This document shows, one piece after another, positions 28,440-50,496 of a stretch of 64,000 nucleotides of DNA. The stretch lies in NCBI GenBank assembly GCA_024679065.1, contig JAGIQG010000006.1, positions 8,060,001 to 8,124,000 of the forward strand, written 5' to 3'. This stretch comes from Sphyrna mokarran. Taxonomy: Eukaryota. A model generated the notes under the pieces. It ran no database searches. It saw only the letters and a program-made list of their open reading frames with translations, and was not told where the DNA came from. The first letter of the stretch is position 1, and each line of letters begins with the position of its first letter. The translations under genes and the position numbers were made by a program.

Positions 28440-28824
28440 CATTCTGATAACAAGATTGGAAGCTAATGCAGCATCTTCCATTTTCACTTGATGCTGTGGT
28501 TTGTACCTTTGTTTCATAAATAGACGTGGTGTGTTAGTCACCAACACTTTATTCGCTTTCTCAGCTCAACATAAATAGGCTTAGTGTTTTCCAAACACAT
28601 CTGAAGAGGACTTGAAACTCTGTTTCTCTCTCCATAGTTGCTGACAGAGTTTCTCTGAAATTTCTAAAAAAATTAAACAGATTTCCTGTTACAGGTTGAG
28701 GGAGATTTTTATCAGTTCTGGGTGATTTCACAAGAAGTGAAGGAACATCTTGAGAACTTCCGTATTTCAGTGTCAAAAGTCAACGAACAGTGAGTGAAAA
28801 AGACAAAACATTGAAGAATTGGAG
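28440..28824 (+). promoter_or_regulatory. Putative promoter/5'UTR of the Ig receptor gene
   Basis: Non-repeat DNA with RUNX-type TGTGGTT (28495), GATA (28445) and ETS-type cores TTCCTG (~28683) and ACTTCC (~28756). Short motifs only. Confidence 0.3.
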
Positions 28825-28885
28825 ATGGGTTCTGTCTATGTTTGGCTTTCCACTGTCCTGCTGTCGGTCTCAGTGCGGGGTTTCA
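28825..28885 (+). CDS. Exon 1 (signal peptide) of a Siglec-15-like Ig receptor: MGSVYVWLSTVLLSVSVRGF
   Basis: ATG at 28825 followed by a hydrophobic leader. Phase-1 donor A|GTAGGT at 28886 matches the phase of the acceptor at 30283. Confidence 0.75.
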
Positions 28886-29529
28886 GTAGGTGCTTTCTAA
28901 TAATAATTTTTCAAATTTATTTTGTTGCCTACGTTGTCCTTTTTACTACATTGCTTCAGGGTTGAGAGCGAGTGAATGTCTAATACAGAGTTTGAGGAAC
29001 AGAGTAGAAAGATTGTCAGGTTTCTATCAAGATACAAAGAACATGGAACAGGCCATTCAGCCCTTCCAGCCTGTGCTCAGATTCAGTGCGATCAAGGCTG
29101 ATTAGTATCTTAATTCCATGGACTTGCCTTGGTTCCATCCTCTCAATATCCTTACCAAAAAGAAAACAATCCAACTCAGTTCTGAGATTTTCAATTGACC
29201 CCACAGCATCAACACCTTTTCAGGGAGAGATTTCCCAATTTTCACCAAAGTTTCAACACTGTTTCTGAAGAGGAGGTTTGCACTGTCGCTGCATCAGGAT
29301 TCTGAAACCCTTCAATTGGATTCCAGTCTGTGACTCATTCCATATTGCCCAATATCAGTCTGCAAACTATCTCAAATCTGTGAAAAACCTATGTTCACTC
29401 AATGTCAGATTTAGTATACTGAGTGTAACAATTACATTAACATGTTTAGTATCAGGGGATAGCTGTAAGACCCCTGTATTAGAGTAAAATTACATGCTAG
29501 ACAAATACTTATACCTTAAGGTCCTAATA

Positions 29530-29848
29530 CATAGAGTCATAGAAACCCTACAGTGGGGAAAGAGGCCATTCAGCCCATAGAGTCTGAACTGATCACAATC
29601 CCACCCAGGCCCTATCCCCACATATTTACCCACTAACCTATGCTTCCCAGGACATTAAGGGACAATTTAGCATGGCCAATTAACCTAACCTGCACACCTT
29701 CAGACTGAGGGAGAGAACCGGAGCACCCGGAGGAACCTCACGCAGACCGAGGAAGAATGTGCAAACTCCACACAGACAGTGACCCAAGCCGGGAATCGAA
29801 CCCAGGAGCTGTAAAGCAGCAGTGCTAACCACTGTGCCACCGTGTCAC
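29530..29848 (-). mobile_element. HE1-like V-SINE in intron 1
   Basis: Reverse A/B boxes (gggaatcgaaccc, agtgctaaccactgtgcc) and V-domain. Confidence 0.85.
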
Positions 29849-30283
29849 TGATACCAACAGAACTTGTCGGCAAGGTTGTTGACTAGTTAGGAAAAACAGA
29901 CAGTTCCCAGTTAGAAAACTGTGGACACGCTTTTGGATGAAGGGTTAATTATACACCTTCGTAGGCAAGATTGAAATTTTAAAAGAATGTTCGTTATACT
30001 GATTAATTGTATAAATAATTTGTATCTGTGACTTGGAGCAGAGTGTTGTATTAGAATGTTCTCCCTGTGGTTAGCATGCTGTGTTAGAGCTGGATCAGAG
30101 GAAGATGCTACTACACAGGTTTCTCTGAGGCAATCCCTGTTGGAAACATGAATAAACTTTTGTAACCTGCCCCTGTGGCTAATTGGAAGAATTCACTCAC
30201 CGCTGAGGCCAGCAGATTGATTTTGAAACACTGATGTCTGTCCCTGCACTATTTTAATATTCTCTCTCTCTCTCTCTCCACAG

Positions 30284-30691
30284 CTCATTCTGAGAATGGT
30301 TGGTCAATGACAGTAGCAGATGAAGTGAATGTTGAGAACGGGGGATCCGCTGTCCTGCCGTGTACTTTCACCCACCCACCCACTAATCTCACACTCACCG
30401 GCTCCGTGATATGGTTCACCAAACCCCCAGGCGATAAGATTGAACGAAAGAATATTATCTTTAATTGTACATACCCGGGTACAGAGCACCCACGGGGTGA
30501 ACTGTGTGAGAATAGGAAACAGCGGGATTGGAGGAATCGATTCAGATTCGTGGGGAACCTCAACAATAACGATTTATCAATAATGATGGAGCGGCTGAGC
30601 TGGGAGGATGGGAACGTGAGATATCACTGCTGTGTGGAACTCAACATTGACAAGTTACAAATACCGACAGGAACCACTCTGGATCTGAGAA
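30284..30691 (+). CDS. Exon 2: Siglec-15-like V-set Ig domain (D1)
   Basis: (TC)n tract + CAG acceptor and A|GTAAGG donor, phase 1/1. Translation WSMTV..SAVLPCTFTHP..IW..FNC..GELC..RFRFVGNLNNNDLSIMMERL..YHCCVEL parallels Siglec-15 as recalled (WSMQV..AVLPCTFTHP..FRC..GSELC..RFRLLGNPRRNDLSLRVERL..YFCRVEF). Confidence 0.9.
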
Positions 30692-30702
30692 GTAAGGATC
30701 GA

Positions 30703-31690
30703 TGAGGGGAGAGGGGAGGAAAGAGGGAGGGAAGTGGGGGAGGGGAAGGCAGGGAGAGGGGGGAGGGGGAATTCCCCCTCCCCGCACTTCTCCCTCCCAA
30801 ATTCCCCCCTCCCACATCCCCCCATTCACCCATTCCCCCTCCCAAACACATTCCCCCCTCCCCACAATTCCACCCTCCCCCACAAATTCCCCCCATCCCC
30901 CAATTGAAGTTAACTGTTTGGGTTTTCATGATTTGGCTGGTTTTAAAAACCTGCTTATGTCCACCAAACGGAGCACCTCCCCAGATTGCATTCATTGCCT
31001 CATGGTAAATTGCTGAAATTTGTGGACTTCTGGACCAACCCCAAAGTCTCCCTCCCCCTCACTGTCCCCCTTCCCAGCCAGCCCCAATCTTCCTGTCCCA
31101 CCCTAGCCAGCTCTGAAGCTCCCACAACAGACTTCAGCCTCACCCAAATGCTGATAACTGACCCTGAGACCCCCGCCAACCCTTCCCCTCCCCTTCCCAT
31201 CCCTCCCGTTTGCTTTCCTCCCCTTCCCTCCCCTCCCCTTCCCTTCTCACCCCTCCCGTCCTCTCCTCTCCCCTCCCCCTCTGATGGTCAGTAGCACAAA
31301 AGATGAGGAGGAGGGAAGGGGAAAGGTGGAGGAGGGGAGGGGAAGGGTGGAGCAAGAGGGGAGGTGAGGGAGAAGGGAGAGGAGTATGGGAGGGAGAGGG
31401 GAGAGGAGGAGGGGAGGGAGGGGGAGGGAAAGGGGTGAGAAAGAGGGAAAGAGCAGGAGGAGAGGGGGAGAAGAGGGAGAGAGAGGGGAGAGAATGTGAG
31501 AGGTGGAGGGGAGGGAGAGGGCATGGGGAGGGAGGGAGGGAGAGGAGACACAGGGGGAGGGAGGGGAAGGAACACATCTCCATATTCCCCTCCCCCACAT
31601 CCTCTCCCTTCTGCTCCCCCTCCCTCTTCCCCCTCCCCCACCAGCCCAATGGTCAGCCCTGATAGCCCTCACTTCCTCCCTCCCCCACCG
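30703..31690. repeat. Alternating polypurine/polypyrimidine low-complexity tracts
   Basis: GA-rich 30703-30770 and 31300-31570; CT-rich 30773-30900, 31180-31280 and 31580-31690. Confidence 0.9.
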
Positions 31691-32344
31691 ATTCTCTTGC
31701 ATACAAGCAGCAAACGGTTCCACCCCACACCACCCCACTCCCCAGAACGCTCTGCCCCTTCTGATCCTGCCTCCTGGGCACTGCCAGGCTGGCACTGCCC
31801 AAGGGGCACTCTACCTTATTCCTGACCTCCCTGGGGGGCCTCAGTTCTCTCCAGTGGCATTGGGAGCCTGTTCCCTGTTCATGGGAAGCAGTTGTAAACA
31901 TTGCTGGAAGGAACCACTCCTGGTGGTGGAGCAGATACTAGTGAGTCCAGAGAATATTGTCCTGGGCTCGCTGATCATATTGAAATTCAGAATTCAACAT
32001 GCTAATCAACTCCGGAGTGATTTCTGACACGCAGTTGATGATGCTAAAAAACGCAGCCTGGGAAATGCACAGAGGCTCGAGGGCCCAGTATGAATCCCAC
32101 AAAATTCTGCTCCTGGTGTTTCCTGGCTGCGTTAATCGAGTAGCGCAGAGAATCCCGGCCATTAACTTCATTATTATTCACTTGGAAGACCGGTGTGACT
32201 TCTTCTCAGTTTGAATCTGATGAGGAGAGTTTGGAGTTTGTAGGAGAATCTACTGTTGTTCTCAGTCTCTTATTGCAAAAGAAAGTAACCAGCAAATTAG
32301 CTTGGGAATATTGAAGAAGTAACACAAGAAATTTTTGAAGTTCA

Positions 32345-32630
32345 TTTATTGAGGGTACAAGTAAGGCTTAACACTGCAATGAAGTTACTGTGAAAATCTC
32401 CTAGTCGCCACACTGTAGCGCCTGTTCAGGTACACTGATGGGGAATTCAGCATGGCCAATTCACCCTGACTCACACACCTTTCAGACTGTGGAAGGAAAC
32501 CGGAGCATCCGGAGGAAACCCACGCAGACATAGGGAGAATGTGCAAACTCCATACAGACAGTGACTCAAACCAGGAATTAAATCCCGGTTCCTGGTGCTG
32601 TGAGGCAGCAGTACTAACCATTGTACCACT
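32345..32630 (-). mobile_element. V-SINE with a non-CR1-type 3' tail
   Basis: tRNA-like head and V-domain, but the tail differs from the HE1-like copies. A tail fragment also occurs at ~47870-47925. Confidence 0.75.
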
Positions 32631-32758
32631 GTTCTTGCCCTTAGGGACTGAAATCTCCACAATAAAGAAAAGGGTAGGAGAAAGATTTGCCTCTAAGAAT
32701 AGCTGGAGCTGAAGAGAATTTTTTTAGAGAAATGTGGCATTATGAGTGGTTCCCACAG

Positions 32759-34545
32759 AAATAACAACATAAGAAATAGGAGCAGGAGTCGGTCATTTAG
32801 CCCCTCGAACCTGCCTCGCCATTCAATAAGATCATGCTGATCTGATAGTGGTTCAGTTCCACCTCCTCCCCATAACCCTTAATTCCCTTCCTGGTCAGAA
32901 ATCTATCTACCTGTGACTTAAACACATTTAACGAGGTAGCCTCCACCACTTCAATGGCAGAGAATTCCAAAGATTTACTACCCCTTGAGTGAAGAAGTTC
33001 CTCCTCGACTCTGTTCTAAACTGTACCTCCCCCTCATTATTTTCAGACTATGTCCTCTGGTTCTGTTTTCCTTTCTGAGTGGAAAGAATCTCTCTATCTC
33101 TATTCTATCTAGCCCCTTTGTAATCTTCTACGTCTCTATAAGCTCTCCTCTCAGCTTTCTAAACTCCAACGAGTACAGGCCCAATCTACCCAGTCTCTCC
33201 TCATAAGCTAACTCCCTCATCTCCGGTATCAACCTGGTGAACCTTATCTGTACTCCCTCCAAGGCCAGTATATCCTTTCGCAAATAAGGGGACCAAAACT
33301 GCACACAGTACTCCAGTTGCGGCCTCACCCGTGGCTTGTACAATTGCAGCAAGACCTCCCTGCTTTTATAATCCATCTCCCTCGTGATAAAGGCCAGAAT
33401 TCCATCTGCCTTCTTGTTCACCTACAAACTGGGTTTTTGCGATTCATGCACAAGGATCCCCAGATCCATGTGGTGATTTTTCACCATTTAAATAATAGTC
33501 CATTTTACTATTATTCCTCCCAAAGTGGATAACCTCACACTTGTCAATGTTATACTCCATCTACCAGGTCCTCGCCCACTCACAGCCCATCCAAATCTCT
33601 CTGCAGACTTTCCACGTCCTCCACACAATTTGCTTTCCCACTCATCTTTGTGTCATCCGCAAACTTTGTCATCCTACACTCAGTCCCCTCCTCCAGATCA
33701 TCTTTGTATATGGTAAATACCATCTGGAAAAGCATCTAATTATTCCAACTCTCTGCTTCCTATTAGATAGCCAATCCTTAATACACGCTAACACTTTACC
33801 CCCAACACCATGCACCTTAATTTTCTGCAGCAACTTTTTGTGAGGCATCTTATCAAATGCCTTCTGGAAATCTAAAAACACCACATTCACCGGTTCCCCT
33901 CTGTCAAACGCATTCATTACATCTTCATAAAAATCCTGTAAATTCTTCAAACACGACTTTCCCATCATGAATCCATGCTGCGTACTCTTGATTGAACCAT
34001 TCTTTTCCAGGTGTCCTGTTATTTCTTCTTTAATGATGGATTCCAGCATTTTCCCAACTATGGACATTAAGCTAACCAGCCTGTACTTACACGCCTTTTG
34101 TTTACCTCCTTTTTTAAATAGTGGCATCACATTAGCTATTTTCCAATCAGCTTGCACCTCTCCAGAGTCTAGTTGATAAATTACAACTAACGCATCTGCT
34201 ATTACTTCTGCCATTTCTTTCAGTACTCTGGGATGCATTCCATCCGGGCCCGGGGACTTGTCTACCTTTAGTCCCATTAGTTTTCCTGCACTACCTCTTT
34301 TAGTAATAGTAATCATTTTGATGTCCTCACTTCCTACAGCCCTATGACTGTTAATTATCGGTAAACTATTTGTGTCCTCTACCATGAAGACTGACACAAA
34401 AAACTTGTTCAAGGCCTCAGTTATTTCCTCGTTTCTCATTATTAAATCCCCCTTCTCGTCTTCTAAGGGTCCAACATTTACTTTAGCCACTCTTTTCCTT
34501 TTTATATATTTGTAAAAACTTTTACTATCAGTTTTTATATTTTGT
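32759..34545 (-). mobile_element. CR1 family E, 5'-truncated with an internal deletion
   Basis: ORFs 33669-34490 and 33128-33421. Confidence 0.92.
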
Positions 34546-34850
34546 AATATTTTTATTTATATTTATTTATTTCATTTATAGTTTTTATTTATATTTTATA
34601 AATTAATCACTCCAAGATTGATATGTCTTATAAGAGAATTCTTGGGAAAAGTATGAAATAAACCGAGTGCCTAATGTCTCTAGTTATAAATTATATTGTT
34701 GTTAATCATTTTGTTTTGTTAAAAGTGAAACCTTGTGGCATAGTTTAATTGGTTAAACAAGATATTGGGATTTCATTTGAAATATTAATGATCTGTAATA
34801 GAATCAGGACATCATCCAGACACTGATTGATCTGTTTGTCCTTTCCTCAG

Positions 34851-35198
34851 GTACTAGTGGAAATGACCCTGTGGTGAATGGGACTGAGGGAGCTTCGGTT
34901 ACATTGCCCTGTATGTTCACATTGAACGAATATTACACCCTGTCCACTGTTAGCTGGATGAGGAAGGAGCCCTACCAACACGTGGTCACATTTAGAGCCC
35001 AATCAAATGGATCATGGACAACTGTAAATGGTGAAAATCGATACGAGCTCATTGGGAGCCCAAAGGAGGGAAATGCCTCAATTAGGATAAACCAGCTGAA
35101 TGTGATTGACAATAACACTTACCTGTGTCTGGTGAATTACACATTGGATAAAGATCAACATCTAATCCTGACTGAGATACAGCTGCAGATCATACATG
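34851..35198 (+). CDS. Exon 3: second V-set Ig domain (D2)
   Basis: ctttcctcag acceptor and G|GTAAGA donor, phase 1/1. Motifs GASVTLPC, VSW, GNASIRI, DNNTYLC. Confidence 0.88.
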
Positions 35199-35744
35199 GT
35201 AAGAAATCATTGCTGCGTTCTCCAATGTATAGAGAATAACATTAATGGCAGCTGGTAATGGCAAATTGTCAAGTGCTGTGCATCAATTGATAACACTCAC
35301 ACTCTCAATCAGAAAGCCATGGATTCAATCCCACTGCAGAGATTTGGGCGCAAACAGAGAGTAGGAGATAAGACTGACATTTCAATCTACCACTGAGGGA
35401 GTTGGAGTTGGCATCATTCAGATGTATTGTTAAATGGAGGTCCTGGCTACCTTCTGAGACGCATGTAGCAGATTCTGCAGCACCATTTTGAGGAAGAGAA
35501 TTAGAGTTATCCCTGACATTGTGGCCAATATTACATACAAACACGCAAATTAGAAGCAGGAGTTGGCCATTCATCCCCTTGAACTTGCTCTATCATTCAG
35601 TATCATCACTGGTCAGCTGATTTTGGCCCTTGTGGTTGCTAACTTTAAAAATACACAATAACCCATCCTCCATCATTGTATGGGGAAGAGAATTCTACAG
35701 ACTCAGGAACCTCTGAGATTTAAAAAAAAAAGCTCTAATTCCAC

Positions 35745-37600
35745 TTGCCAGCATTTGGTCCAAAGCCTTGAATATTATGGTATGTCAAGTACTCATCCAG
35801 GTGGGAAATCCTGCCTCCACCACCCTCCTTGGCAGCACATTCCAGTCTGTCACTACCCTCTGGATAAACAAGTTTTTCCTCAAATCTCCTAGCCCTCACT
35901 TTTAACTTGTGTTCCCCTTGTAACTGTATCTTTAACTAAGGGGAACAGCTGCTCCCTATCCACCCTGTCCATGCCCCTCATAAACTTGAACACCTCAATC
36001 AGGTTGCTTCTTAGACTTCTCTACTCCAACAAAAACAACTCAAGCCTATCCAATGTCTCTTTATAATTAAGATGTTCCATCCCAGACAACATTGTGGTGA
36101 ATTTCCTCTGCACCACTTCCAGGGCAATCACATCCTTCCTATAACATGATGACCAGAACTGCCTACAGTACTCCAGCTGTGGCCTCACCACCATCCTGTA
36201 CAACTCTATAGTGACCTTTCTGCTCTTGTAACCTATGCTCAGATTGATAAAGGTATGTGTATCCTATACCTTTTTCACTACCCTATTAAACTGCCTTTCC
36301 ACCTTCAGAAATCTATCGGGGGAGAGGGGGAGTTGGGAGAGTTCCCATTGTTCTTCCGAATCTCCCCCAGTGTCAGAGGTTTCATAGCATAATTCATGTC
36401 AAATTATTCCTTCCAAATTGCACCACCTCACACTTTTCAGCGTTAAATTCTGTCTACCTCTTATCCTCCTATTTGACCATTTTGTTTATATCTTCCTGTA
36501 ACTCAAGACACCCAACCTCACTGTTAACCACCCGGCCAATCTTTGTGTCATCAGCAAATTTACAGATCCTGCTCTCCACATAGTCAATGTGTCATTTATA
36601 TAAATGATGAACAATGGGTCGCCCAGCACGGATCCGTGTGTTACGCCACTGGTTACTGGCCTCCAGTCACTAAAGCAGCAGTCTGTCATCACCCTCTGTT
36701 TTCTACCACGAAGCCAATTATGTATCCACCTTGTCAAATCATCCTGTATCCCATGTGCATTTTAATAAGTCTCCCACATGGGACTTTGTCAAAGACTTTG
36801 CTGAAATCCATGTAAATTACATCTCCATACCCTCCTTATCTACACACTTGATTACATGCTCAAAAATTTCAATCAAATTTGTTAGGCATGACTTCCCTCT
36901 GACAAAACCATGCTGACTATTCCTGATCAAACCTTGCCTCTCGAAATGGAGACAAATTCTCCCTTCAGAATCTTCTCCAGCAGTTCCCCAATCACAGACG
37001 TGAGGGTCAATGGTCTGCAGTTTCCTCTACAATCTTTCTTAAATATTAGCTATTTTCCAGTCCTCTGGCACCTCTCCAGTGGCCAGGAAGGATTTAAAAA
37101 TTTGGGTCGGAGCCTCTGCAATTTCCTCCCTTGCCTTCCAATTCATTTAGACCTGGAGATTTCTCCACTTTTAAACCCTTCAATACTTTGTCACTCCCAA
37201 TGATAATTTTCTCTAGTGCCTCACAGTCTCTCCCCCTCAGTTCCATAACCACCACTTCATTGTCTGGGTAAAGACAGATGTAAAATATTCATTTAACACC
37301 TTACCAATGTCCTCTGCCTCTATCCACAGATTTCTCCTTGATCCTTAATGGGCCCTACTCTTTCCCTAGTTATCCTCTTCCCTTTGATATATTTATAGAA
37401 TACCTTACGATTTTCCCTGCTATTGCCAGTCAGAGCTTTCTCATATCCCCTCTTTGCGTTCCTACTTGATTTTTTAAGCTCCATCCTGCACTTTCTGTTC
37501 TCCGCTAATGCTTCCGCAGACTTATTCCCCATATACTTATTAAAAGACTCTCTTTTCCTTCTCATTGTATCCTGAATATCTCTGGTCATCCATGGTTCTT
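35745..37600 (-). mobile_element. Old CR1 ORF2 fragment
   Basis: ORFs 36021-36203, 36486-36737 and 37320-37589. Confidence 0.85.
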
Positions 37601-37852
37601 TGTTACAAACCTATGAGGAGGGGTGACTGACTCTGTTTTTAATGAATTCACCTTGTGCTAGTAGCAACAAAGGTTTAATCAAATAAGGTCTCCTTTTCCT
37701 TGAGAATCTTTCCTAGACCCAATCACTATGTTTAAAATTGAGCCAAATTAACCAGGCTTTCTAGAGTTAAAATTAACTATTAAAATGGTCAGAAGAAATG
37801 GTAAAACACATGCATCTACAATCCTGTAAATTAGAAGTAAGATTTGTGTCCA

Positions 37853-40478
37853 ACAGTAAGGAAATGGTTGTAGTTGTGGAGGGTCTTTTCTACATGGAAG
37901 TCAGTCACTAGTGGAGTGCCCCAGGGATCAGTTCTGGGACTCTTGCTGTTTGTAATGTTCATAAATGACCTGGATGAGGAAGTGGAGGGATGAGTTGGTA
38001 AGTTTGCCAACGACACAAAGGTCGGAGGTGTTGTGGATAGTTTGGAGGGATATCAAAAGTTGCAGTGTGACATAGATAGGATGCAAGACTGGGCGGAGAA
38101 GTGACAGATAGACTTCAACCCAGATAAATGTGTAGTGATCCATTTTGGCAGGTCGAATGGGATAAAGGATTATAATATCAAAGGTAAGAATCTTAGCATT
38201 GTATAGGATCAGAAGGACAAAGAACAAAGAAGAACAAAGAACAAAACAGCACGGGAAACAGGCCCTTTGGCCCAATGAGCCCGTGCCGCCACTTCGATAT
38301 TCCCACTTCTACCTGTGATCCCTGTCTATGTTTATAGATCTATGCATTAGAACAAAATTTGAGACAATTTAGGGAGCATTTGTTCTGCCTGTCAGCCTAA
38401 GAGCACAACTTTGGAATGTGGGAAGAAACCGGAGCACCCGGAGAAAACCCACGCAAGCATGGGGAGAATGCGCAAACTCCCACAGACACAGGCCCAAATC
38501 CATGTATCTGCACAGCACAACGATAGTCACTGAGCTGTCGTGTTGCCCATCAACTGGTCCAGGTCAAGTGTACACTAATGACGTGAAGCACTAGGATACT
38601 CTCGAAAAATCCAACAGCAGCCCTCTCACGACCCATCGCATGTATGCCCCTTGTTAGACAACAAGGTGGACCAAAATATCTATAGGATAAAACAAATACA
38701 TCAATATCATTGACAATTTACACACTTTCCAGAGAACTCCCAAGGGTCATGATCCCTATTTTAAATCAGTTTTCTATACCCCTCCATTCCCATTCTGTTC
38801 ATGTGCTCATCTAAGTATCTCTTAAATAACTCCAGAGTATCTGCCTCCACCACTTTACTTGGCAGCGCATTCCATACCCCCACACCCTCTGTGTGAAAAA
38901 ACTCCCTCTAGCATCCAAATTATACCTTACCCCCCTCACCCTAAGCCCGTGATCCCTCGTGCTATTTGAGTCCATCCTAGGAAACAGCTTAACCCTGTTC
39001 ACTCTATCTATACCCCTCATAATCTTGTACACCTCTATCAGATCTCCTCTAAGTCTACGTCTTTCGAAGGAAAGTAGCCCCAATTTGCTTAACATCTGCT
39101 CATAACTCAGACCTTCCATACCAGTCAGCATCCTGGTAAACCTCCTCTGCACTCTCTCCAGTGTCTCCACGTCCTTCCGGTAGTAAAGTGACCAGAACTG
39201 GATGCAGTATTCCAAATGAGTTCTAACCAATGTTTTATACAACTGCAACATTAAAGGCCAACTCTTGTACTCTATAACCCTTCCTATAAAGGCTAGCATA
39301 CTATATGCTTTCTTCACAACCTTCTCCACCTGCTCAGCCACCTTCAGAGACTTGTGCACCTGTATCCCCAGATCCCTCTGCATTTCTATACTCTTAATAG
39401 GTCTACCTTTTATCATGTACCTCCCCTCTACATTCTTTCTCCCGAAATGCATCACCTCACATTTATCAGGATTGAATTCCATCTGCCATCTGTCTGCCCA
39501 AGCTACCAGCCTATCTATGTCCTGCTGCATCGCCTGACAATGCTCCTCACTATCTGCAAGTCTAGCCATCTTTGTATCGTCTGCAAACTTGCTGATCACT
39601 CCACTTACTCCCTCTTCCAAGTCATTTATATATATTACAAATAGAAGAGATCCCAGTACCGAGCCCTGCGGCACACCACTAGTGACCGACCTCCAGCTAG
39701 AGAAACACCCTTCCACTATTACTCTCTGTCTCCTATTACCAAGCCAGTTAATTATCCATCTAGCTATCTGTCCTTGATTGATACGCTATCCATCTTGGAT
39801 AGTTTATCCTTGTGGTTCGGGTCCATAGGACTCTTAAATCGGCCTTGCAGGTGGAGAATGTGGTCAAAAAAGCATATAACAAAGTAGTCTTCATTAGGGA
39901 TTGAGTTGAGGAGTTGGGAAATAATGCTGCAGCTTTATAAGACCCTAGTCAGACCCCACTGTGCGCGGTTCTGGTCGCCTCATTACAGGACAGATGCGGA
40001 AGCTATTGAAAGAATGCAGTGGAGATTTACGAGGATGTTGCCTGGATTGGGTGGCATGCCTTATGAGGATAGGTTGAGGGAGCTAGGTCTTTTCTCCCTG
40101 GAGAGATGAAGGATGAGAGGTGACCTGATAGAGGTTTATAAAATGTTGAGAGGTAAAGATAGGGTAGATTCTGAGAGGCTATTTCCAAGGCTGACATGGT
40201 CGCTACGAGAGGACACAGGTTTAAGGTGCTGGGGAGTAGGTACAGAGGAGATGTCAGGGGTAAGTTTTTCACTCAGAGGGTGGTGGGTGAGTGGAATCGG
40301 CTGCCATTGGTGGTGGTGGAGGCAAACTCGTTGGGGGCTTTTAAGAGATTCCGGATGAGTACATGGGACTTAATGGGATTGAGGGTTATAGATAGGCCTA
40401 GTAGGTAGGGTTATGATCGGCGTAACTTGTGGCCAAAGGGCCTGTTTGTGCTGTAGTGTTCTATGTTTTATGTTCTAT
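37853..40478 (+). mobile_element. CR1 family C 3' part, split by a family B insertion (pieces 37853-38218, ~39808-40478)
   Basis: Collinear with the reverse complement of 42634-43700, with a TTCTATG tail. Confidence 0.85.
38219..39776 (-). mobile_element. CR1 family B: 301-aa RT C-terminal ORF plus full ~600-nt composite 3'UTR
   Basis: ORF 38811-39716 runs directly into the structured UTR, SINE body and TTCTTTG tail. Confidence 0.94.
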
Positions 40479-41739
40479 GAAATATAAATAAAATGTTATA
40501 TGGAATAGTCCTTGACATGCAAGGAATAGGTGAGATTGCGAATGTTATAGATTGATTCCCTTATAGTTGGCCTCTGCAGGCATGTAGTTGTCTCTTCAAT
40601 TCAGATAGTTCTGTGTGTTGGTACGGAGATTTCAATTCTTTTTCCAGCTGCAATCCTTCTGGCTGATTAACTTCCACAGTCAGAGAGAGAGTTTCAAGAT
40701 GTTGGTGCAAAAGGCTATTTTCCTGTCTCAGTTACTGAATCAGATACGTTTTGTGCAGAAACCTTCCAGCTGCTTTTTCCCGAAGCACATGTACACAGAC
40801 CAACAAATAGACACCAGCAGTCTGGTAACAAACAGGCTTTTAACCCTCAACTATATCAGAAAGAAAAGATAACATTTCTAATGTCTATCTTATTCTCTAA
40901 CATTCAGGATTAATATAACGTATATGTGAATTAAGAGGTGAACTGGTCAGACACAGCACACTGCACTCTATATGGCAAATTTGACTAAGACAGAGCCCAA
41001 AGATTTTTCAGCAACCCACCCAGATGTCAGTCACCTCTGAGAGTCAACCAATCTCACTTTGACTATGGGTGGAATTTTAGGAGAAAAATTCTAAATGTCC
41101 AGTTAGCATTAAAATGGGAGAGTTAGAGATCTGATTTTTGGGTGAACATTATTCCTAATCTTATGCATCTAGTGTCTGAAAAATGGGTTAGACTGTTTCT
41201 AGCTACTAAAGGTAGTGGGCAGGGATTAATTCAGCAGTCAGTTTGCTCTAGGAGCAGAGGGAACTCTTGCAGGTGGCAAGAGACAGAGAGAGGAAAAGCT
41301 GTCAGGCCTCTGCTGTTGCAACCAGCCTCAACCCAGCCTCTCCCAACATTATTGTGGTGCTCCGTGAATGATAGTGAGCCCCACAATGCCCAAAAATATC
41401 GCTCCCCCCGTCCCACCATCTGATCAGATTGTGATCCCCACTGATCAAAGCTGCAGAGTGGCAGTGGGCCCTCCTCCCTTTCCCCACCAATTGGAGCAGC
41501 CTCACCCCCCCCCCCCCCCATCCCAATCAGTCTGCCCTGGTTTGATCCAGTCCCCATAGGCCCCATCCTCTTCAGGCTCTGGCAGACTCTGATGGGCAGT
41601 GCCAAGGTGCCCAGTGGGCATTACTAAGGTGCCAGGCTGGCAGTTCTGAGGTATCAGGATGGCACTGCCCAAAGGACACTTTAGAATTGCAGCCTATGTC
41701 TCTCTCACAAGGGATTCCCCTATTCATCTTGCGTCTATG

Positions 41740-41865
41740 CCTCACCTGACTTAGGGGCAAAGCCCCGAAAACCAGTGGCATTAAATAAAACTATTGGACT
41801 TCAATCTGATGTTATGAAACTTCTTATTGTGTTTACCCCAGTCCAAAGCTGCATCTCCACATCAT
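41740..41865 (+). mobile_element. Penelope pseudo-LTR fragment with a degenerate hammerhead
   Basis: CTGAC(TT)A-GGGGC-AAA-GCCCC-GAAA, then the same terminus as 6379-6452. Confidence 0.6.
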
Positions 41866-42633
41866 CCACACGCTGACATTGTATTGTCTCTCCTGCCTGT
41901 TGTCTAGAAGGACTACTGCCAACTTTACAGACCCCACTTTATCTGTGGAGTGACTGGATGGGCAGGAAGAGAATGACTATTGAGTCCTGTCAACGCGATG
42001 ACCCAATGTCCATCCAGCCCAGGGAGCATTCTACGAATAGTCAGTGACTACTGTACTCACCTTCTCACTGACATCCCCTCCAATCTCCTACATTGAAGAC
42101 CCCACGCAGGCCTTTCCTCACTCAGCGTGACAGATGGGCGTCTATCTCGGTGACCTTCTTTAGCCCTCAGATCTTTTGAAAGGCAAAATCAGAGGCCCAT
42201 GGGTTAACTGAATAGCCCTGTGTGCTGACCTTTGGGGAGAGTGGGGGGGGCGATCACCTCATCAACAACACATGTTGGAGCTGGGCGGCCTGGCGAACTC
42301 TGAAACCTTTGGCCCTTGTCTCAGATGCAGCACATCTGCTCAACCAACCTCACAGCAAATGCTGAAACCTTGGAATTTACAGAATGGAAAGCTCATTGTG
42401 GAGAGGGTTAACCTGTGAGCAGCAATCAGTGGTACAGATGTACATCACAACCAAATAATTGGGCTTACTTGGCAGTTGTGTCAGAGTTTCTGTGACAGAC
42501 ATGGTAAGCTCATTGCTGTGAAGCCTTCATATTACATTTAACAAGATCAGATTACACCACTGGACCCAGGTTCGATTCCAGCCTTGCATGACTGTGGAGT
42601 TGGTATGTTCTCCCCATGTATTGCTTGGGTTTA

Positions 42634-44180
42634 TAGAACATAGAACATAGAACATAAAACACTGCAGCATAAACAGGCCCTTCGGCCCACAAGTTGTGAC
42701 GAACACATCAAAACCCACCCAGCTATAGACCTATCTATAACCCCCAATCCCATTGGATCCCATATACTCATCCAGAAGTCTTTTAAAAGACACCAGCGAG
42801 TTTGCCTCAACCACCACTGACAGCAGCCGATTCCATTCACTCACCACCCTCTGAGTGAAAAACTTTCCCTTAGCATCCCCTCTGTACTTGCTCCCCTGCA
42901 CCTTAAATCTGTGCCCTCTCGTCGCGACCATTTCAGCCCTGGGAAATAGCCTCTGAGAGTCCACCCTATCTATTCCTCTCAACATCTTGTAAACCTCTAT
43001 CAGGTCGCCTCTCAACCTTCGTCTCTCCAGGGAGAACAGTCCCAGCTCCCTCAACCTGTCTTCATAAGGCATGCCTCCCAATCCAGGCAACATCCTTGTA
43101 AATCTCCTCTGCACCCTTTCAATAGCTTCCACGTCCTTCCTATAGTGAGGCGACCAGAACTGCGCACAGTACTCCAAGTGTGGTCTGACAAGGGTCCTAT
43201 AAAGCTGCAGCATTACCTCCTGACTCCTGAACTCAATCCCTCGATGAATGAAGGCCAGTACACCGTAAGCTTTCTTAACCACATCCTCCACCTGGGAGGC
43301 CGATTTGAGAGTCTTATGGACCCGGACCCCAAGATCCCTCTGCTCTTCCACACAGCTAAGACTCCTACCTTTGATAGTGTACTCATTCATCCCGTTGGAT
43401 CTGCCAAAATGGACCACAACACATTTATTCGCGTTGAAGTCCATCTGCCACTTCTCCGCCCAGTCTTGCATCCTGTCGATGTCATGCTGCAACTTCTGAC
43501 ATCCCTCCAGACCATCCACAACACCACCGACCTTCGTGTCATCGGCGAACTTACTCACCCATCCCTCCACTTCCTCATCCAGGTCATTTATGAAAATGAC
43601 AAACAGCAAGGGTCCTAGAACAGATCCCTGGGGCACTCCACTGGTGACCGACCTCCATGCAGAAAAAGAGCCATCCACAACCACCCTCTGCCTTCTGCAG
43701 GCAAGCCAGTTCTGGATCCACAAGGCCAAAGCCCCTTGGATCCCATGGCCTCTCACCTTCTCAAGAAGTCTTGCATGTGGGACCTTGTCAAATGCCTTGC
43801 TGAAGTCCATGTACACCACGTCCACTGCTCTTCCTTCGTCAATGTGTTCAGTCACATTTTCGAAGAACTCAATTAAGCTCGTAAGGCACGACCTGCCTTT
43901 TACAAAACCATGTTGACTATTTCTAATCAACCTAAACTTCTCCAAATGCTCGTAAATCTTGTCCCTCAGAAGCCTCTCCATCAGCTTACCAACCACTGAG
44001 GTCAGACTCACCGGTCGGTAATTTCCAGGACTATCCCTGTTCCCTTTCTTGAAAATAGGGACCACATCCGCAATCCTCCAATCCTCCAGAACCTCTCCCG
44101 TCTCCATCGACGACGCAAAGATCATTGCCAGGGGCTCTGCAATGACATCCCTCACCTCCCACAATAACCTGGGGTACATC
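42634..44180 (-). mobile_element. CR1 family C, 5'-truncated, uninterrupted 482-aa RT ORF; inserted in a SINE (42550-42630 / 44195-44342)
   Basis: ORF 42731-44179 and tail. SINE head lies on the left and SINE tail on the right. Confidence 0.95.
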
Positions 44181-44530
44181 CCATAATTCCCATAATCCAG
44201 AGATGTGCAGGATTAGCCATGGTAGACAGGTGGAGTTACAGGAATAGGATGGGGGAGAGGGCCTCGTTAAGAGATTCGGTGCAGGCTCAATGGGCTGAAC
44301 AGCCCTTTTCTGCATTGTAGGGATTCTATGATTTTATGATTATTGATACTGTCTGTTTGTTGCTTTTCATCCGCAGTTCATGCTCTTTGCTGAGTTCAGT
44401 TCCATTGACATAATATTTCTGATCTGCAATCGAATTCCACAATTGTCTACAGATTTGGATTATTATCTCTATGTTGTTGGTCTCTCAGCTTTTCTTGTCT
44501 CTGGTCTGATCTCTTTCATTTTCTGTTCAG

Positions 44531-44630
44531 CTGCAGAGACTTTCCCCACTGTGATATTGTGCATTCCACTTGGAGTGAAACTCCTTCCCCTTCTCATGAT
44601 GTGCATCGTTTTATACAGGGACAGAACCAG
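44531..44630 (+). CDS. Exon 4: transmembrane exon with intramembrane Lys (AETFPTVILCIPLGVKLLPLLMMCIVLYRDRT)
   Basis: Pyrimidine tract + ttcag acceptor in phase 1 and AG|GTATGG donor. About 22 hydrophobic residues with a central K, followed by basic residues. Confidence 0.78.
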
Positions 44631-45309
44631 GTATGGGATTTTCACTGCAAGAACTTGCCTTTAAAAGTCTAAAGCTCGATTAATGAGTGAACTTTGGTCT
44701 ATGTGCCTTAGCAGGTCATTCAAATCTTTATGTTATTCTGATTAAATCACACAGTACATGTCCAGCAGAGGTCACTGGATACCAACAGCAGCTGGAACCC
44801 AGAGCAATATTTCATCCCCTACTCCTGTAGCAGTTAAACCAATGGAGAATCCCTATTTCAGCCCAGTTGGGATTGTCTAAAATAGGACAGATCGGGGACT
44901 GAAACGGATCCCTTTGTGGTCTGTATGATTCAGCTCCTCACAGCCTAAACTTGCTGAAGTATTAGAGACATGATTAAAACCGTAGATCACTCTATTCACT
45001 GAGGTCTATTGTAATTTGTACACTGCTGTTAAGGGAGGTTTGTTTTTGACCCTGAATGGTGTGTAGCTTAGAGAGAAATTTGTAGGTGGTGCTCCTTTAA
45101 TCTCTGTCCACGTTCTTATGGTATAGGTTTTAAATTTGGGACAGTCTGCCAAAGAAGCTTTGGTCTGTTGCTGCAGTGCATTTTGTATATGGTGTACACT
45201 GCAACCATATTGTGCTGGTGGTGGAGGCAGTGATAACTTCAGATTTCATCAGTGCTGCACTCATCCAGGCAAGTGGAGAGTTTTCCATCACACTCCTGGA
45301 CATTCTGGA

Positions 45310-47803
45310 TAGGTGCAGAAAGAATAGGGTTGTTTATCTCCCTGGGTGGACTGGAAGGTACCTAGAGCTGGGGGTTCGGATGGGGAGGAATTTGTAAAAT
45401 GTGTGCTGGAGGGATATTGGAGCAGTATGTGGCTAGTCCGACTAGAGAGGGGGCTATATTGGATTTAGCTCTGAGTAATGAGCTAGAGCAGGTGGTTGAG
45501 GTTGCAGTAGGGGAACATGTGGTTAACAGTGACCACAATTCTGTCTACTTTAGAATACAGGTGGAAAAAGATACTTGTTGCCCTAAGGGGAGATTGCTAA
45601 ATTTGGGGAAGGCTAACTACAGTCGGATTAGGCAGGAACTTATGGAAACTGATTGGGAAAGGTTGTTCGATAGAAAGTGAAAATGTTGCAGGAAAGATGT
45701 ATGTAGACTCAGGGGAAGGATGGGAAAGGCAAGATTAGAAAGCTGTGGATTACTAGGGAAAGTGGGGACTTGGTTAGGAAGAAAAGAGAGGCGTATGTTA
45801 GGTCTAAACAACTGGGAACGGAGAGAGCATTGGAGGAATATAGAGAGAGTAGGAGGGAGCTCAAACGGGGAGTTAGAAGGGCAAAATGGGGACATGAAAT
45901 GGTTTTGGCCGACAGGATTAAGGAAAATCCAAAGGCTTTTTATTCCTGTGTTAGGAATAAAAGGGTGGTTAGTGGAAAAATTGGTCCTGTTAAAAACAGA
46001 GGAGGGGATCTGTGCTTAGTCCCCGAGGGAATGGGGGTGATCTTGAATGAACACTTTACGTCGGTATTCACGAAAGAGAGGGACTTGTTGACAGCTCCTG
46101 TCTCTGAGGGAGCTGTGGACCAGTTGAGGGAGATATCCATACTGAGGGAGGAAGTGTTAGAGCTTCCAGGTAGCATTAAAACTGATAAATCTCCAGGGCC
46201 TGATGGCATTTATCCCAGGCTGCTTAGGGAGGCGCGAGGTGAAATTGCTGGGCCTCTGACGCAAATCTTTGTCTCTTCTTTGGACACAGGGGAGGTCCCA
46301 GAGGACTGGAGAATAGTTAATGTCGTACCTTTGTTTAAAAAGGGTAGTAGGGATAACCCTGGAAATTATAGGCCGGTGAGTTTGACGTCAGTGGTAGGGA
46401 AGGTGTTGGAGGGGATTCTTAGAGATAGGATGTATAGGCACTTAGAGGTTGTGATCTGATTAGGGAATCGCAGCATGGATTTGTTAAGGGGAGTTCGTGC
46501 CCCTTTTTGAGGAGGTGACGAAAACGGTGGACAAAGGATGAGCCGTTGATGTCGTCTATATGGATTTCAGTAAGGCGTTTGACAAAGTCCCTCATGGGAG
46601 GTTAGTTGAAAAGGTCAAGGCTAATGGGATACAAGGACAGGTAGCTAGATGGATAAGTAACTGGCTTAGTAATAGGAGACAGCGAGTAGTAGTGCAAGGG
46701 CATTTTTCTAACTGTAGGTCGGTCACTAGTGGTGTGCCTTTATAGGAAGGGGTATAGAGTACAAGAGCTGGCATTTAATGTTGCAGTTGTATAAAACCTC
46801 ATTGCTAGACCTCATTTGGAATACTGTGTCCAATTCTGGTCGCCTTACTACCGGAAGGACGTGGAGACCCTAGAGAGAGTGCAGAGGAGATTTACCAGGA
46901 TGCTGCCTGGTAGAGAAGGACTGGATTATGTGGAAAGTTTATGTAAATTGGGGCTGTTTTCTTTAGAAAGACGGAGACTGAGAGGAGATCTAATGGAGGT
47001 GTACAAGATTATGAAGGGTATAGATAGAGTAAACAGTGGTAAGTTTTTTTTCTGGGTTGGAATCAAATATCATGAGGGGTCACAGGCTTAGGGTGAGGGC
47101 GTCAAGGTATAATTTGGATATTAGAGGGAGGTTTTTCACACAGAGGGTTGTGGGGGTATAGAACGCACTGCCAAGTAAGGTGGTGGAGGCAGGTACTCTG
47201 GAGTTATTTAAGAGATACTTAGGAACATGAGCAGAATAGGGATGGAGGGATATAGTAGACTGATATAAATGGGGATCATGAACCTTGGGATGTTCCTGTG
47301 AATTGCATAAGTTGTGTATGTTGTTGATGTATTTCTCTTTTATCCTCCAGGTACTTCAGTCCGCCTTGTTGTCTAACAAGGGGCGTACGTGCGATGGGTT
47401 GTGAGAGGGGTGCTGTTGGATTTTTTTGGGAGTAGCCTATTGCTTCACGTCGTTAGTGTACGCTTAAACTGGACCAGTTGATGGGCAACATGACAGCTCA
47501 GTGACTATCACTGTTGCTGTGCAGATACAGGGACTTGGGCCAGTATCTGTGGGAGTTTGCACATTCTCCCCATGCTTGCGTGGGTTTTCTCTGGGTTGCT
47601 CCGGTTTCCTCCCACACCCCAAAGATGTGCTCTTGGGCTGACTGGCGAAACAAATTTTCCCTAAATTGTCTCCCCAGTTTGGCTCCAATGCAAATTTCTG
47701 TAAACATAGACAAGGGTCATGGGTGGAAGTGGGAACATTAAAATGGTGGCAGGAGCTCATTGGGCCAAAGGGCCTTTTTCCTGTGCTGTGTTGTTCTTTG
47801 CTC
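45310..47803 (+). mobile_element. CR1 family B, EN-RT with internal deletions plus composite 3'UTR
   Basis: ORFs 45399-47091 and UTR modules at 47225-47803. Confidence 0.92.
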
Positions 47804-48405
47804 TTTTTCCTGTCTTGTGATTTGTAGATGGTTGACTGGCTTTGAGGAGTTAAAATTTATTTATTAATTTATTTATTTGTCGCATGTAAGGCTTATGCTA
47901 ACGCTGCATTGAAGCTATTGTAAAATACTGAATTGGGGGAATGAGTTATTTTCTGCACAGGTTTACCCATCTCTTGACTTTCCAAAGCTTGTCTACAACA
48001 CAACACCACCCTCTCGAAGGCAATTGGTGATGGGCCATAAAAATACTGTCTTCGCCATTCCATGAAAGATCAAAATGAAATTCCTGGGGTTCTCGGGAAT
48101 CGTAGCAGGAGGGACACTGACCATGCAAAGATCTATTGACTTCAGGCGGGATTTTCTTGCACTGGGGCGAGTGCAGCTGGTAAATCCTGCCCTTAATCTT
48201 CAATCTGTTATTGTGACACCGTGTTTATCTGGCTGGCCCATTTCAGTTTCTGATCAATGAGCAGAACGTCACTGAAGGGCTTTATATTCACCCGATATTA
48301 GAATTTACACTGCATGTAACTGACATCTAGTGCAGAGACACAGTACTAATATTCTGACTCAGTTTGATAAGCGTCCTTTCTTTTATTTATAATTTGGTGG
48401 ATATT

Positions 48406-49024
48406 TGGCATATGGAGTCTTGGCTTTTATTGGTAGGGGGATTGAATTTCGGAGCCGCAACGTCATGTTGCAACTGTACAAAACTCTAGTGCGGCCGCAC
48501 TTGGAGTATTGTGTGCATTTCTGGTCCCCGCATTATAAGAAAGATGTGGAGGCATTGGAGAGGGTACAGAGGAGGTTTACCAGGATGGTGCCTGGTATGG
48601 AGGGCAGGTCGTATGAAGAGAGGCTGAGGGATTTGAGGTTGTTTTCGTTAGAAAGGAGGCGGCTAAGAGGGGACCTAATCGAAACATATAAGACGATTAG
48701 AGGTTTAGATAGGGTAGACAGTGATAGCCTTTTTCCTAGGATGGAGAAAGCTAGCACGAGGGGACACCGCTTTAAATTAAGGGGTGATAGTTATAGGACG
48801 GATATCAGAGGTAGGTTCTTTACCCAAAGGGTGGTTCGGGAGTGGAATGCCCTGCCTGCAGCAGTTGTAGATGCTCCAAGTTTGGTGGCATTTAAGAGGT
48901 TAGTTGATAAGTATATGGAAGAGAAGGGAATGGTTTAGTTTGGAGGGGCATTGCTTTTTATATTGGTCGGCGCAACATCGAAGGCCGAAGGGCCTGTTCT
49001 GTGCTGTAATGTTCTATGTTCTAT
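48406..49024 (+). mobile_element. CR1 family A 3' fragment
   Basis: 177-aa ORF and tail. Confidence 0.95.
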
Positions 49025-49504
49025 TGTTTGTATCCTTTAATAAAGACGAATCCACTTTCATTCAATTGGTTTTACTTTTAGTCTGATTCTATGAGCGTCT
49101 TCCTGAGTGGCTAAAGAAGAGAAAATGCACTGTAAAGAAAAAAGTGATTTAATTGATACATTACTCTTAGTTTTGTTGATAATGGACGGGATCGTCCTCC
49201 CCGCACCCTCCCAATCCCTCGGAGTGTATTACAGTGTTGGAGGCATCCTGTCATAGGCTGGGAGATCTTCCAGTCTCATCACTGTCAGTGGGGTTTCCCA
49301 TTGTTTATACTCTCTATCACCAGGGGAACGGTGGCAGGGACTGGAAGATCCCATAGCTGGGAACAGCAGGAATATGGATTTGATTGCTTGTGTACCTTTA
49401 GTTAATACCAGTGTTTTGGTCACCTGACCTGGTGCGTCCTTATGCGCCTCAGTGTTGTATTGCACAGATTACACTGATGTGAAACATCTTGGGATGTTTT
49501 GTTA

Positions 49505-49835
49505 ACTTAAAATCCAACAGATTTATTTGGAAGCACGAGCTTTTGGAGCTTTGCCCTTTCATCAGGTGAATGATAAGTTTGGTTCATAAACAGGACATAT
49601 ATATAAACACCATCTCAATTACAAGATAATGGTTGGAATGTGATATAATTGAGTTTGTGTCTGTATATGACCTGTATGTGAACTGAACTCTTCACTCACC
49701 CAATGAAGGGGCAGTTTCCAAAAGCTCGTGCTACCAAATAAACCTGTTGGACTTGTTTTATGCCTTATGTTAACCTGGTGTTGTGAGACTACTTACTATG
49801 CTTATCCCAGTCCAACGCTGGCAACTCCACATCAT
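49505..49835. mobile_element. Palindromic Penelope pseudo-LTR remnant with two degenerate hammerheads
   Basis: 49513-49625 is the imperfect inverse of 49645-49752, followed by the same terminus as the other copies. Confidence 0.65.
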
Positions 49836-50032
49836 TATTAACTCAAAGGCATAACTTGTCCTCAGAAACAGGATTCTTTCATTATTTCACACACATATTG
49901 GTTATTAGATCTGTTCAAAAATGTGTGGAGAATCCTATTTAAACATACGCTGGCTGTATCTGGAGGTGCTGAAAATGCTCTTATTTTAGTATTAATTTGG
50001 CTTATTTTAATAGATTTTATTTGTGTTTCCAG

Positions 50033-50042
50033 AAAGGAGTAA
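50033..50042 (+). CDS. Putative terminal coding exon (R-K-E-stop), giving a short cytoplasmic tail
   Basis: Strong acceptor ttttatttgtgtttccag (AG at 50031-32) in non-repeat DNA. The phase-2 join gives AGA AAG GAG TAA. Confidence 0.5.
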
Positions 50043-50496
50043 GACAAATCCAACGCAGGAAGCTGAGAAGCCTAATGTACAATCTCAATACAAACCTGTC
50101 TCACTCGCCCTGTGCTGAATCTCAAATTGCAACATGAGCTGGACTTACTTTAATGGTCACTCACTGTGAAATCTTACAGACCAAACCCGAGCAATTGGGA
50201 GCATTGGGGGTTGGACGGTACCATGGTCAGCATGGACCAGTTGTAATTACACGCTGTAATCCTCTCAAACTCTATGCTGGGTTCCCAGAGCAAAATTCTT
50301 CCTGTTAACCTGCCATTTGATACAGTTCTACATCAAGTGGTGATGTTATAGTCTTGGTGGGACAGGATGATCGTGAATCAACAGCCTGACTAAAATCTCT
50401 GCCGTTGGCTGGAATTGAAATTACAACAGGGAAAGATATAAAGCCAGCTACTGATCGGCTGTTTTATACAATCGTACAAAGTCTACATAACCCAAT

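Follow-up and report, generated by a model that had tools for sequence, protein, structure and literature searches.

A Siglec-15-related V-V receptor gene in a shark and its inhibitory twin: a likely converted receptor pair

Descriptions of Siglec-15 present it as a single, conserved gene with an activating role and as a target of cancer immunotherapy. Paired Siglecs that undergo gene conversion are described as characteristic of primate Siglecs of the CD33-related group, but cartilaginous fish show such a pair in the Siglec-15 branch. The gene considered here lies at positions 28825 to 50042 of a 64,000-nucleotide stretch of the shark Sphyrna mokarran (GenBank assembly GCA_024679065.1, contig JAGIQG010000006.1, positions 8,060,001 to 8,124,000, forward strand), called the window below; the contig is C1215 in our numbering. 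The gene is intact and encodes two V-set domains (D1 and D2, from the V1 and V2 exons) and a transmembrane helix that contains a lysine. With a probability of about two in three, it is the activating half of a pair converted with an inhibitory gene (the twin), and it then lost the arginine and aromatic residues that contact the sugar. The structural and evolutionary part of this paired-receptor explanation stands on very firm ground, while its functional part may be given slightly better than even odds.

Among described proteins, Siglec-15 is the nearest relative. Like the window gene, the human (7zoz), bird (P0080) and lungfish (P0067) proteins have a V domain with two disulfides, an N-terminal Trp and a transmembrane Lys motif. 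Siglec-15, however, is V-C2 with R143 and Y154, whereas the window gene is V-V with Cys and Leu at those places. It is also a single conserved gene, whereas the window gene belongs to a cluster that includes members with an immunoreceptor tyrosine-based inhibitory motif (ITIM).

The primate pairs Siglec-11/16 and Siglec-5/14 offer the closest parallel in organization. They join near-identical ectodomains to opposite signalling modules in inverted orientation, as the shark pair does, and they are kept alike by repeated gene conversion, as we infer for the shark pair (PMC5701461, PMC6288428). The primate pairs are CD33-related and combine V with C2, whereas the shark pair is Siglec-15-related and V-V; SIGLEC11 and SIGLEC16 lie about 9 kb apart and share a similar region of about 3 kb, whereas the shark genes lie about 850 kb apart and share single-exon tracts (PMC5701461, PMC6288428). 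In great apes, Arg changes are found in both SIGLEC5 and SIGLEC14 (PMC7379906), whereas in the shark family it is mainly activating members that have lost the residue. Human Siglec-XII carries R122C, an Arg-to-Cys change at the essential position like that of the window copy, and the change ends its sialic-acid binding (PMC6288428). Siglec-XII recruits SHP-2 and is read as retiring (PMC6288428), whereas the window change affects the transmembrane-Lys member of a pair whose other half, the twin, keeps the Arg, and it recurs in several lineages. The skate MDIRs are likewise multigene activating and inhibitory Ig receptors of cartilaginous fish; they are described as CD300/TREM/pIgR-like, and it is by this description that we set them apart from the window family, which matches Siglec-15 best (PMC3031540).

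Paired, converting Siglecs were thus already known in primates, and what is added here is a paired system in the Siglec-15 branch. The literature searched held neither an elasmobranch paired family derived from Siglec-15 nor an activator-skewed Arg loss; subscription papers and supplements may describe them. The word "siglec" occurs nowhere in the available text of PMC6795676 and PMC7677710 and once in that of PMC8455134. Three residues distinguish the ectodomains of the twins, and with two of these lying at the sugar site they provide a natural two-residue experiment on how an activating copy of an inhibitory self-sensor avoids firing on self.

The window gene and its inhibitory twin

Exon assembly confirmed the five phase-compatible GT-AG exons of the original prediction, which give 927 nt and 308 aa (leader, V, V and transmembrane Lys) with an intact frame and a single terminal stop; the intron phases are 1, 1, 1 and 2. 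All exons lie on the forward strand. The coding part of exon 1 (28825-28885), located by tblastn with the leaders of relatives, encodes the leader peptide and ends in a phase-1 donor. Exon 2 (30284-30691) encodes D1, a V-set domain of Siglec-15 type with the four Cys (47, 82, 95 and 136) expected for the two disulfides, and exon 3 (34851-35198) encodes D2, recognized as V-set by Pfam and by its fold model. Exon 4 (44531-44630) supplies the transmembrane helix, in which Lys289 (codon 44578-44580) stands within a Pro-Leu-Gly-x-Lys motif; the hydrophobic stretch covers approximately residues 277-302, and its peak contains the Lys. Exon 5, read from its first acceptor (50033-50042), adds a three-residue end and a TAA stop, similar to the ends of relatives P0035 and P0041. 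The gene is confirmed as genuine and intact rather than a chance assembly of exons, because elasmobranch relatives of D1 with a transmembrane Lys show the same order of leader, V, V, transmembrane helix and short basic tail.

No C2 exon was found in the window, including the 9.3-kb intron, with a profile built from 14 relatives (best E 0.69 among 1617 open reading frames); the same profile recovers the C2 exons of neighbouring genes at E 1e-25, and V1 is spliced to V2. A contig of run X1, guessed to be RNA, covers 30536-30694, continues into the first bases of exon 3 and shows exactly the predicted V1-V2 joint. Contigs of X2, X4 and X8, which come from more distant relatives, also pass from V1 into V2, making four of four runs. 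These contigs were aligned for the V1 exon only, and none of the nine runs (shares 0.04-0.10) is on record as RNA. The X1 contig differs from the window by two letters and has the twin's Arg and Phe at both differing sites. It supports the V1-V2 joint, not expression of the window copy, so the splicing proposed earlier is borne out at this joint with the twin's letters.

D1 is Siglec-15-like and D2 is V-type, as had been proposed. Their Pfam V-set scores are 34.1 and 58.5 bits, respectively, against a cut-off of 26 bits. The best sequence match of D1 in the PDB is the human Siglec-15 V domain (E 8.7e-14; next 7e-5), and its model aligns with 7zoz at Z 17.1 over 120 residues with a root-mean-square deviation of 1.8, the next fold reaching Z 14.2. 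D1 retains the N-terminal Trp of Siglec-15, and its Cys47/136 and Cys82/95 align with the C64-C142 and C95-C104 disulfides of the Siglec-15 V domain (PMC10264397). When domains are scored singly, the top PDB hit of D2 is again the V domain of Siglec-15 (36 bits), which CD276 overtakes only through summed domains; the D2 model places 7zoz first at Z 14.9, but tied with VSIG4, B7-H3 and nectin-1 (14.2-14.4).

Analysed separately in a V-domain tree of 55 rows, which leaves aside the domains of contig C668 and whose outgroup does not fall on one side of a branch, D1 groups with Siglec-15 and D2 does not. D1 lies inside a set of Siglec-15 and Siglec-15-like rows with support of 96/94; the set also contains long-branch PILR-like and MPZ-like rows, and tree support is modest. 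D2 lies outside this set, where its neighbours are TIM-like rows and the second V domain of a V-V-C2 subfamily, and none of the family members scored has the F-strand Arg in D2. The motif around Lys289 is shared with bird Siglec-15 (P0080), in agreement with the earlier view of this Lys; the transmembrane exon alone matched nothing in Pfam or the PDB. With V-V and no C2 instead of V-C2, the gene is not a one-to-one SIGLEC15 orthologue, as the original prediction held.

The twin lies on the reverse strand at 7.19-7.26 Mb of the contig and comprises a leader, V1, V2, a neutral transmembrane helix and cytoplasmic exons that encode TYSKI, TYASL and, last of all, a VTYAAV ITIM. The window gene (8.09-8.11 Mb, forward strand) is inverted relative to it, with 5' ends facing and V1 exons about 851 kb apart, of which 7.27-7.76 Mb was not read. 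Near-identity between the two is limited to two tracts that end 5-72 nt from the exons. The first (30212-30704, forward strand) consists of exon 2 with 72 nt upstream and 13 nt of the downstream intron and is 99.4% identical to the twin; the second (34831-35203, forward strand) surrounds exon 3 and is 99.5% identical. Near-identical V exons thus stand with a transmembrane Lys and short tail in one gene and with a neutral helix and tyrosine motifs in the other, as in paired receptors.

Outside these tracts, the gene resembles an activating V-V paralogue at 7.98-8.03 Mb. V1 is identical to the twin at 406 of 408 nt and V2 at 346 of 348 nt, compared with 70% and 86% identity to the paralogue. The leader, in contrast, is 82% identical to the twin and 89% to the paralogue, and the transmembrane exon 57% and 90%, the former value being near the background (median 44% for random 100-mers). 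The 100-nt flanks of the leader and transmembrane exons show 48-65% identity to the twin and 68-85% to the paralogue. Because the V exons match the twin while the leader, introns, transmembrane exon and tail match the activating paralogue, exon-limited gene conversion is the most likely origin: the V exons would derive from the twin and the remaining gene frame from the activating line. Transfer from twin to window gene is the likely direction, since the sister of the pair is an inhibitory Mustelus protein whose leader equals that of the twin. The five sites that distinguish the copies comprise one intronic change, one silent change in V2 and three replacements, the third of which is Asn in the twin and Ile in V2 of the window copy; judged by Mustelus P0006, all three replacements are derived on the window-copy side.

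Similar relationships recur in other species. A V1+V2 tree was built from 43 rows, that is, 40 of 71 database proteins and three genes of our own, with isoforms, multi-V proteins and partial or transmembrane-less models left out. Among these predicted sequences, ectodomains are shown to group by species lineage and not by signalling class. Rows of the two classes, activating and inhibitory, form pairs within Heterodontus, Scyliorhinus, Heptranchias, Pristiophorus, the rays and the window's genome. Signalling class requires 11 changes on the tree, against means of 13.1-13.2 for shuffled labels, and 66-72 of 500 shuffles are as low. A single activating clade of the 18 transmembrane-Lys rows is rejected, with a log-likelihood 961 lower and an approximately unbiased test p of 1.7e-113. 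In the V-V-C2 subfamily of the same cluster, the transmembrane-Lys gene and the neutral genes are 92-97% identical in V2 and C2 and 76% in V1, again with exon-limited ends.

A shark and ray family and its sialic-acid contacts

Of 235 candidate proteins, 57 match D1, and every one of these has a shark or a ray as its named source. Most of these relatives consist of leader-V-V followed either by a Lys-containing helix and a short tail or by a neutral helix and tyrosine motifs; they stand in NCBI under mixed automatic names. Genes with a transmembrane Lys are present in every elasmobranch order sampled. A wider search returned 99 representatives, and among the 20 looked up were a lungfish Siglec-15 (P0067) and a chimaera protein (P0097), both V-V-C2 with a transmembrane Lys, salamander V-V proteins with tyrosine tails, and the usual V-C2 form in birds, mammals and frogs. 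In the window's genome, the top nine of 36 matches to bird Siglec-15 all lie in the window's cluster, the V1 exons of the twin and the window gene first, so that bird Siglec-15 and the shark locus are reciprocal best matches: the query finds the cluster in the genome, and D1 finds Siglec-15 in the PDB.

The window gene is, judging from these matches, a member of a shark- and ray-wide V-V family derived from Siglec-15 with both transmembrane-Lys and ITIM members. Its simplest history would be that of an old V-V-C2-transmembrane offshoot of Siglec-15 that lost C2. C2 loss explains the gene better than recent exon shuffling, because V-V-C2 relatives with a transmembrane Lys occur in a chimaera and 125 kb downstream, and the chimaera protein places the V-V module before the elasmobranch split. 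The original prediction is supported in part; as regards a lineage-specific, exon-shuffled receptor set apart from Siglec-15, it is mistaken or incomplete: the V-V layout is common to sharks and rays, the relatives favour C2 loss, and it is in this cluster that bird Siglec-15 has its closest counterparts in the genome. It also overlooked the central feature of the gene, its converted inhibitory twin and the Cys in D1 at the place of the sialic-acid Arg.

In Siglec-15, R143 forms a salt bridge with sialic acid, Y154 makes a CH-pi contact, and R143A abolishes binding (PMC10264397). The essential F-strand Arg is missing in the window copy, where the aligned codon (30631-30633, forward strand) encodes Cys137 through a CpG transition, and is present in the twin. 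The G-strand aromatic that contacts Neu5Ac is also missing; the codon aligned with Y154 (30655-30657, forward strand) encodes Leu145 where the twin has Phe. That both D1 replacements fall on 5-10 named residues of 135 has a chance of 0.001-0.005, with CpG bias ignored. Sialic-acid binding is predicted to be lost in the window copy and kept in the twin.

Across the 43-row set, the Arg is lost in 9 of 18 transmembrane-Lys rows and in none of 23 inhibitory or neutral rows, two of which, being models without a transmembrane helix, were classed by tail. In 11 independent pairs, drawn from the tree with the Arg column kept, loss falls on the activating side in 6-7 and on the opposite side in none (sign test p 0.016-0.031). 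In the full set of 71 database proteins, loss of the Arg is seen in 8 of 17 transmembrane-Lys members and 1 of 29 inhibitory or neutral members, a count that stands apart from 18 scored transmembrane-less models (five with loss) and seven unscorable ones. The V-V-C2 subfamily repeats the pattern, with His in its sole transmembrane-Lys gene and Arg in five neutral-helix V1 exons.

Proposed function and competing explanations

A transmembrane Lys is needed for coupling to DAP10/DAP12 (PMC7226832). ITIMs recruit SHP phosphatases, and converted pairs are seen as counter-traps against microbes that exploit the inhibitory member (PMC7226832, PMC6288428, PMC5701461). By analogy, the window protein would sit at the surface of myeloid cells with a DAP12/DAP10-type adaptor bound through Lys289 and would signal via Syk, while the twin would sense self sialic acid and act as a brake via SHP phosphatases. 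Conversion would keep the activator's surface the same as that of the brake, so that a microbe gripping the brake by a protein ligand would trip the activator. Loss of the Arg would keep the activator silent on self sialoglycans.

A broader generalization, "copy, then blind", we rate a little below even odds. The activator would time and again replace its V exons with copies of those of the inhibitory twin, almost a megabase away, after which its sialic-acid Arg (in the window copy, also the G-strand aromatic) would be removed by selection. Such a cycle may have run separately in six or more lineages and, within one cluster, in two subfamilies. If so, the activator would serve as a decoy, set off by microbial proteins directed against the brake and not by self sugar.

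Several observations weigh against the paired-receptor reading. Half of the transmembrane-Lys members (9 of 18) retain the Arg, one of the two V1 domains in the neutral-helix model P0007 carries Cys, and the Arg codon contains a CpG, which makes its loss mutationally easy. A single assembly underlies the Arg/Cys and Phe/Leu differences, the rows taken from the database are model predictions that include isoforms, and the direction of conversion is likely rather than proven. A search of the genome gave no adaptor gene: the best hit of a DAP10 profile (E 0.44) is unconvincing, and a profile for the ITAM, a tyrosine-based activation motif of immunoreceptors, found nothing, its control being silent as well. 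No transcript of the window copy appears among the contigs, the sole near-identical RNA-type contig having the twin's Arg and Phe. A zebrafish Siglec-15 clone bound glycans poorly (PMC7226832).

The main rival accepts the same pair history but regards the activating copy as a dispensable gene in decay, in which constraint is relaxed, the CpG-containing Arg codon mutates first and the gene heads for a null state. We consider this improbable. It accommodates the three replacements against one silent change since conversion, the stop at a position where the activating paralogue has Gln, and a broken V2 exon 4 kb before the window (L013, 8056109-8056357 on C1215; three stops, 73% identity to window D2). 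Rhincodon P0041, which lacks the F-strand Cys, and the want of a window-copy transcript among the contigs fit it too, and the retirement of Siglec-XII through R122C and the common null alleles of Siglec-14 and Siglec-16 provide precedents (PMC6288428). However, the frame, all splice sites, the four D1 Cys and the transmembrane Lys are intact, both D1 changes hit named contact residues, at the low chance given above, and transmembrane-Lys genes persist in all elasmobranch orders sampled.

Two further explanations are much less probable than decay. The one first proposed for this locus, a lineage-specific receptor acting alone after an unrelated V exon was shuffled into a Siglec-15-like gene, is very unlikely. 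It draws on the position of D2 outside the Siglec-15 set, beside the V-V-C2 second V and TIM-like rows, and on the tied fold scores of D2. Yet the best single-domain PDB match of D2 is the Siglec-15 V domain, and the chimaera dates the V-V module before the elasmobranch split; "lineage-specific" and "alone" are refuted by a family that spans sharks and rays and by the existence of the inhibitory twin. Slighter still is the chance that near-identity is an artefact of collapsed or cross-polished exons in ordinary diverged paralogues. A single assembly is available, it has 100-N gaps at 7.185 and 8.384 Mb with identical tandem copies flanking the latter, and the RNA shows one version only. Against this, the copies differ at five sites, the tracts end sharply, their flanks are unrelated or paralogue-like, and other species, in assemblies independent of this one, likewise group their copies by species. 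The conversion of an activating gene by its inhibitory twin, followed by loss of the sugar contacts, remains the preferred explanation.

Neighbouring genes and minor features

Downstream of the window gene, the cluster continues with a V-V-C2 gene with a transmembrane Lys (8.21-8.23 Mb, forward strand; 125 kb downstream) and five or six copies of V-V-C2 genes with a neutral helix (8.32-8.44 Mb, reverse strand). In this set (8.21-8.44 Mb; L004-L009, L014-L020), the Lys gene faces the neutral copies, C2 and the transmembrane helix share one exon, and one neutral copy has a frameshifted C2 at 8.3696 Mb. The 100-N assembly gaps lie at 7184682 and 8383893; V exons at 8.325-8.331 and 8.386-8.391 Mb flank the second and have identical translations, so they may be an assembly duplicate. 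A V-C2 gene that keeps the Arg and has a neutral helix (L021, 8269932-8280921) stands between the two groups. Its V domain scores 65 bits to human Siglec-15 (window D1, 55 bits) but lacks the second Cys pair, and its tail was not found.

A V-C2 SIGLEC15 with a transmembrane Lys was not among the 36 matches from 95 scored candidates of the genome, a first-look search that does not prove absence. SLC14A, EPG5 and ATP5F1A are genes that we take to be neighbours of human SIGLEC15. An SLC14A-type gene and ATP5F1A lie here on contig C1, other than the cluster's C1215, and no Siglec-15-like V exon occurs within 200 kb after SLC14A (EPG5 was not searched for). The cluster's own flanks, with a galactosyltransferase open reading frame on one side (7.76 Mb) and a GNAT exon on the other (8.59 Mb), are uninformative for synteny; 7.27-7.76 Mb was not covered.

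V exons of other types occur elsewhere in the genome. PILR-like exons at 15.16-15.19 Mb of C960 (L022-L025; L024 matches PILRA at E 2e-20) form two duplicated pairs, one with Arg and one with Cys at the F-strand position. At 1.76-2.84 Mb of C668 and 75.48 Mb of C2 (L173-L178), V exons whose F-strand Phe-Arg motif is presumably of CD33/Siglec-1 type probably make up a second Siglec cluster. The outgroup came from clusters at 28.0-28.2 Mb of C446 and 7.45 Mb of C938 (L026-L031), where the V exons are rich in Cys and are taken to be TIM-like.

Within the window, a second acceptor of exon 5, 4 nt downstream of the first, would open a predicted 27-residue tail (50037-50118, forward strand), and this frame is also present in relatives Heterodontus P0018, Pristiophorus P0025 and P0062. 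The tail contains a formal S-x-Y-x-x-V match that is absent from the tails of relatives and is probably due to chance. A possible acceptor at 28680-28695, 130 nt 5' of the ATG, suggests a non-coding first exon. Downstream of the gene, ATTAAA first appears at 50747 and AATAAA at 52866 (range to 53199). A G-rich and C-rich low-complexity stretch (30705-31650) begins exactly where the first tract ends, and the twin has a poly-C run just past the same point. The remaining window consists mostly of reverse-transcriptase fragments of long interspersed nuclear elements, presumably of the CR1-type family.

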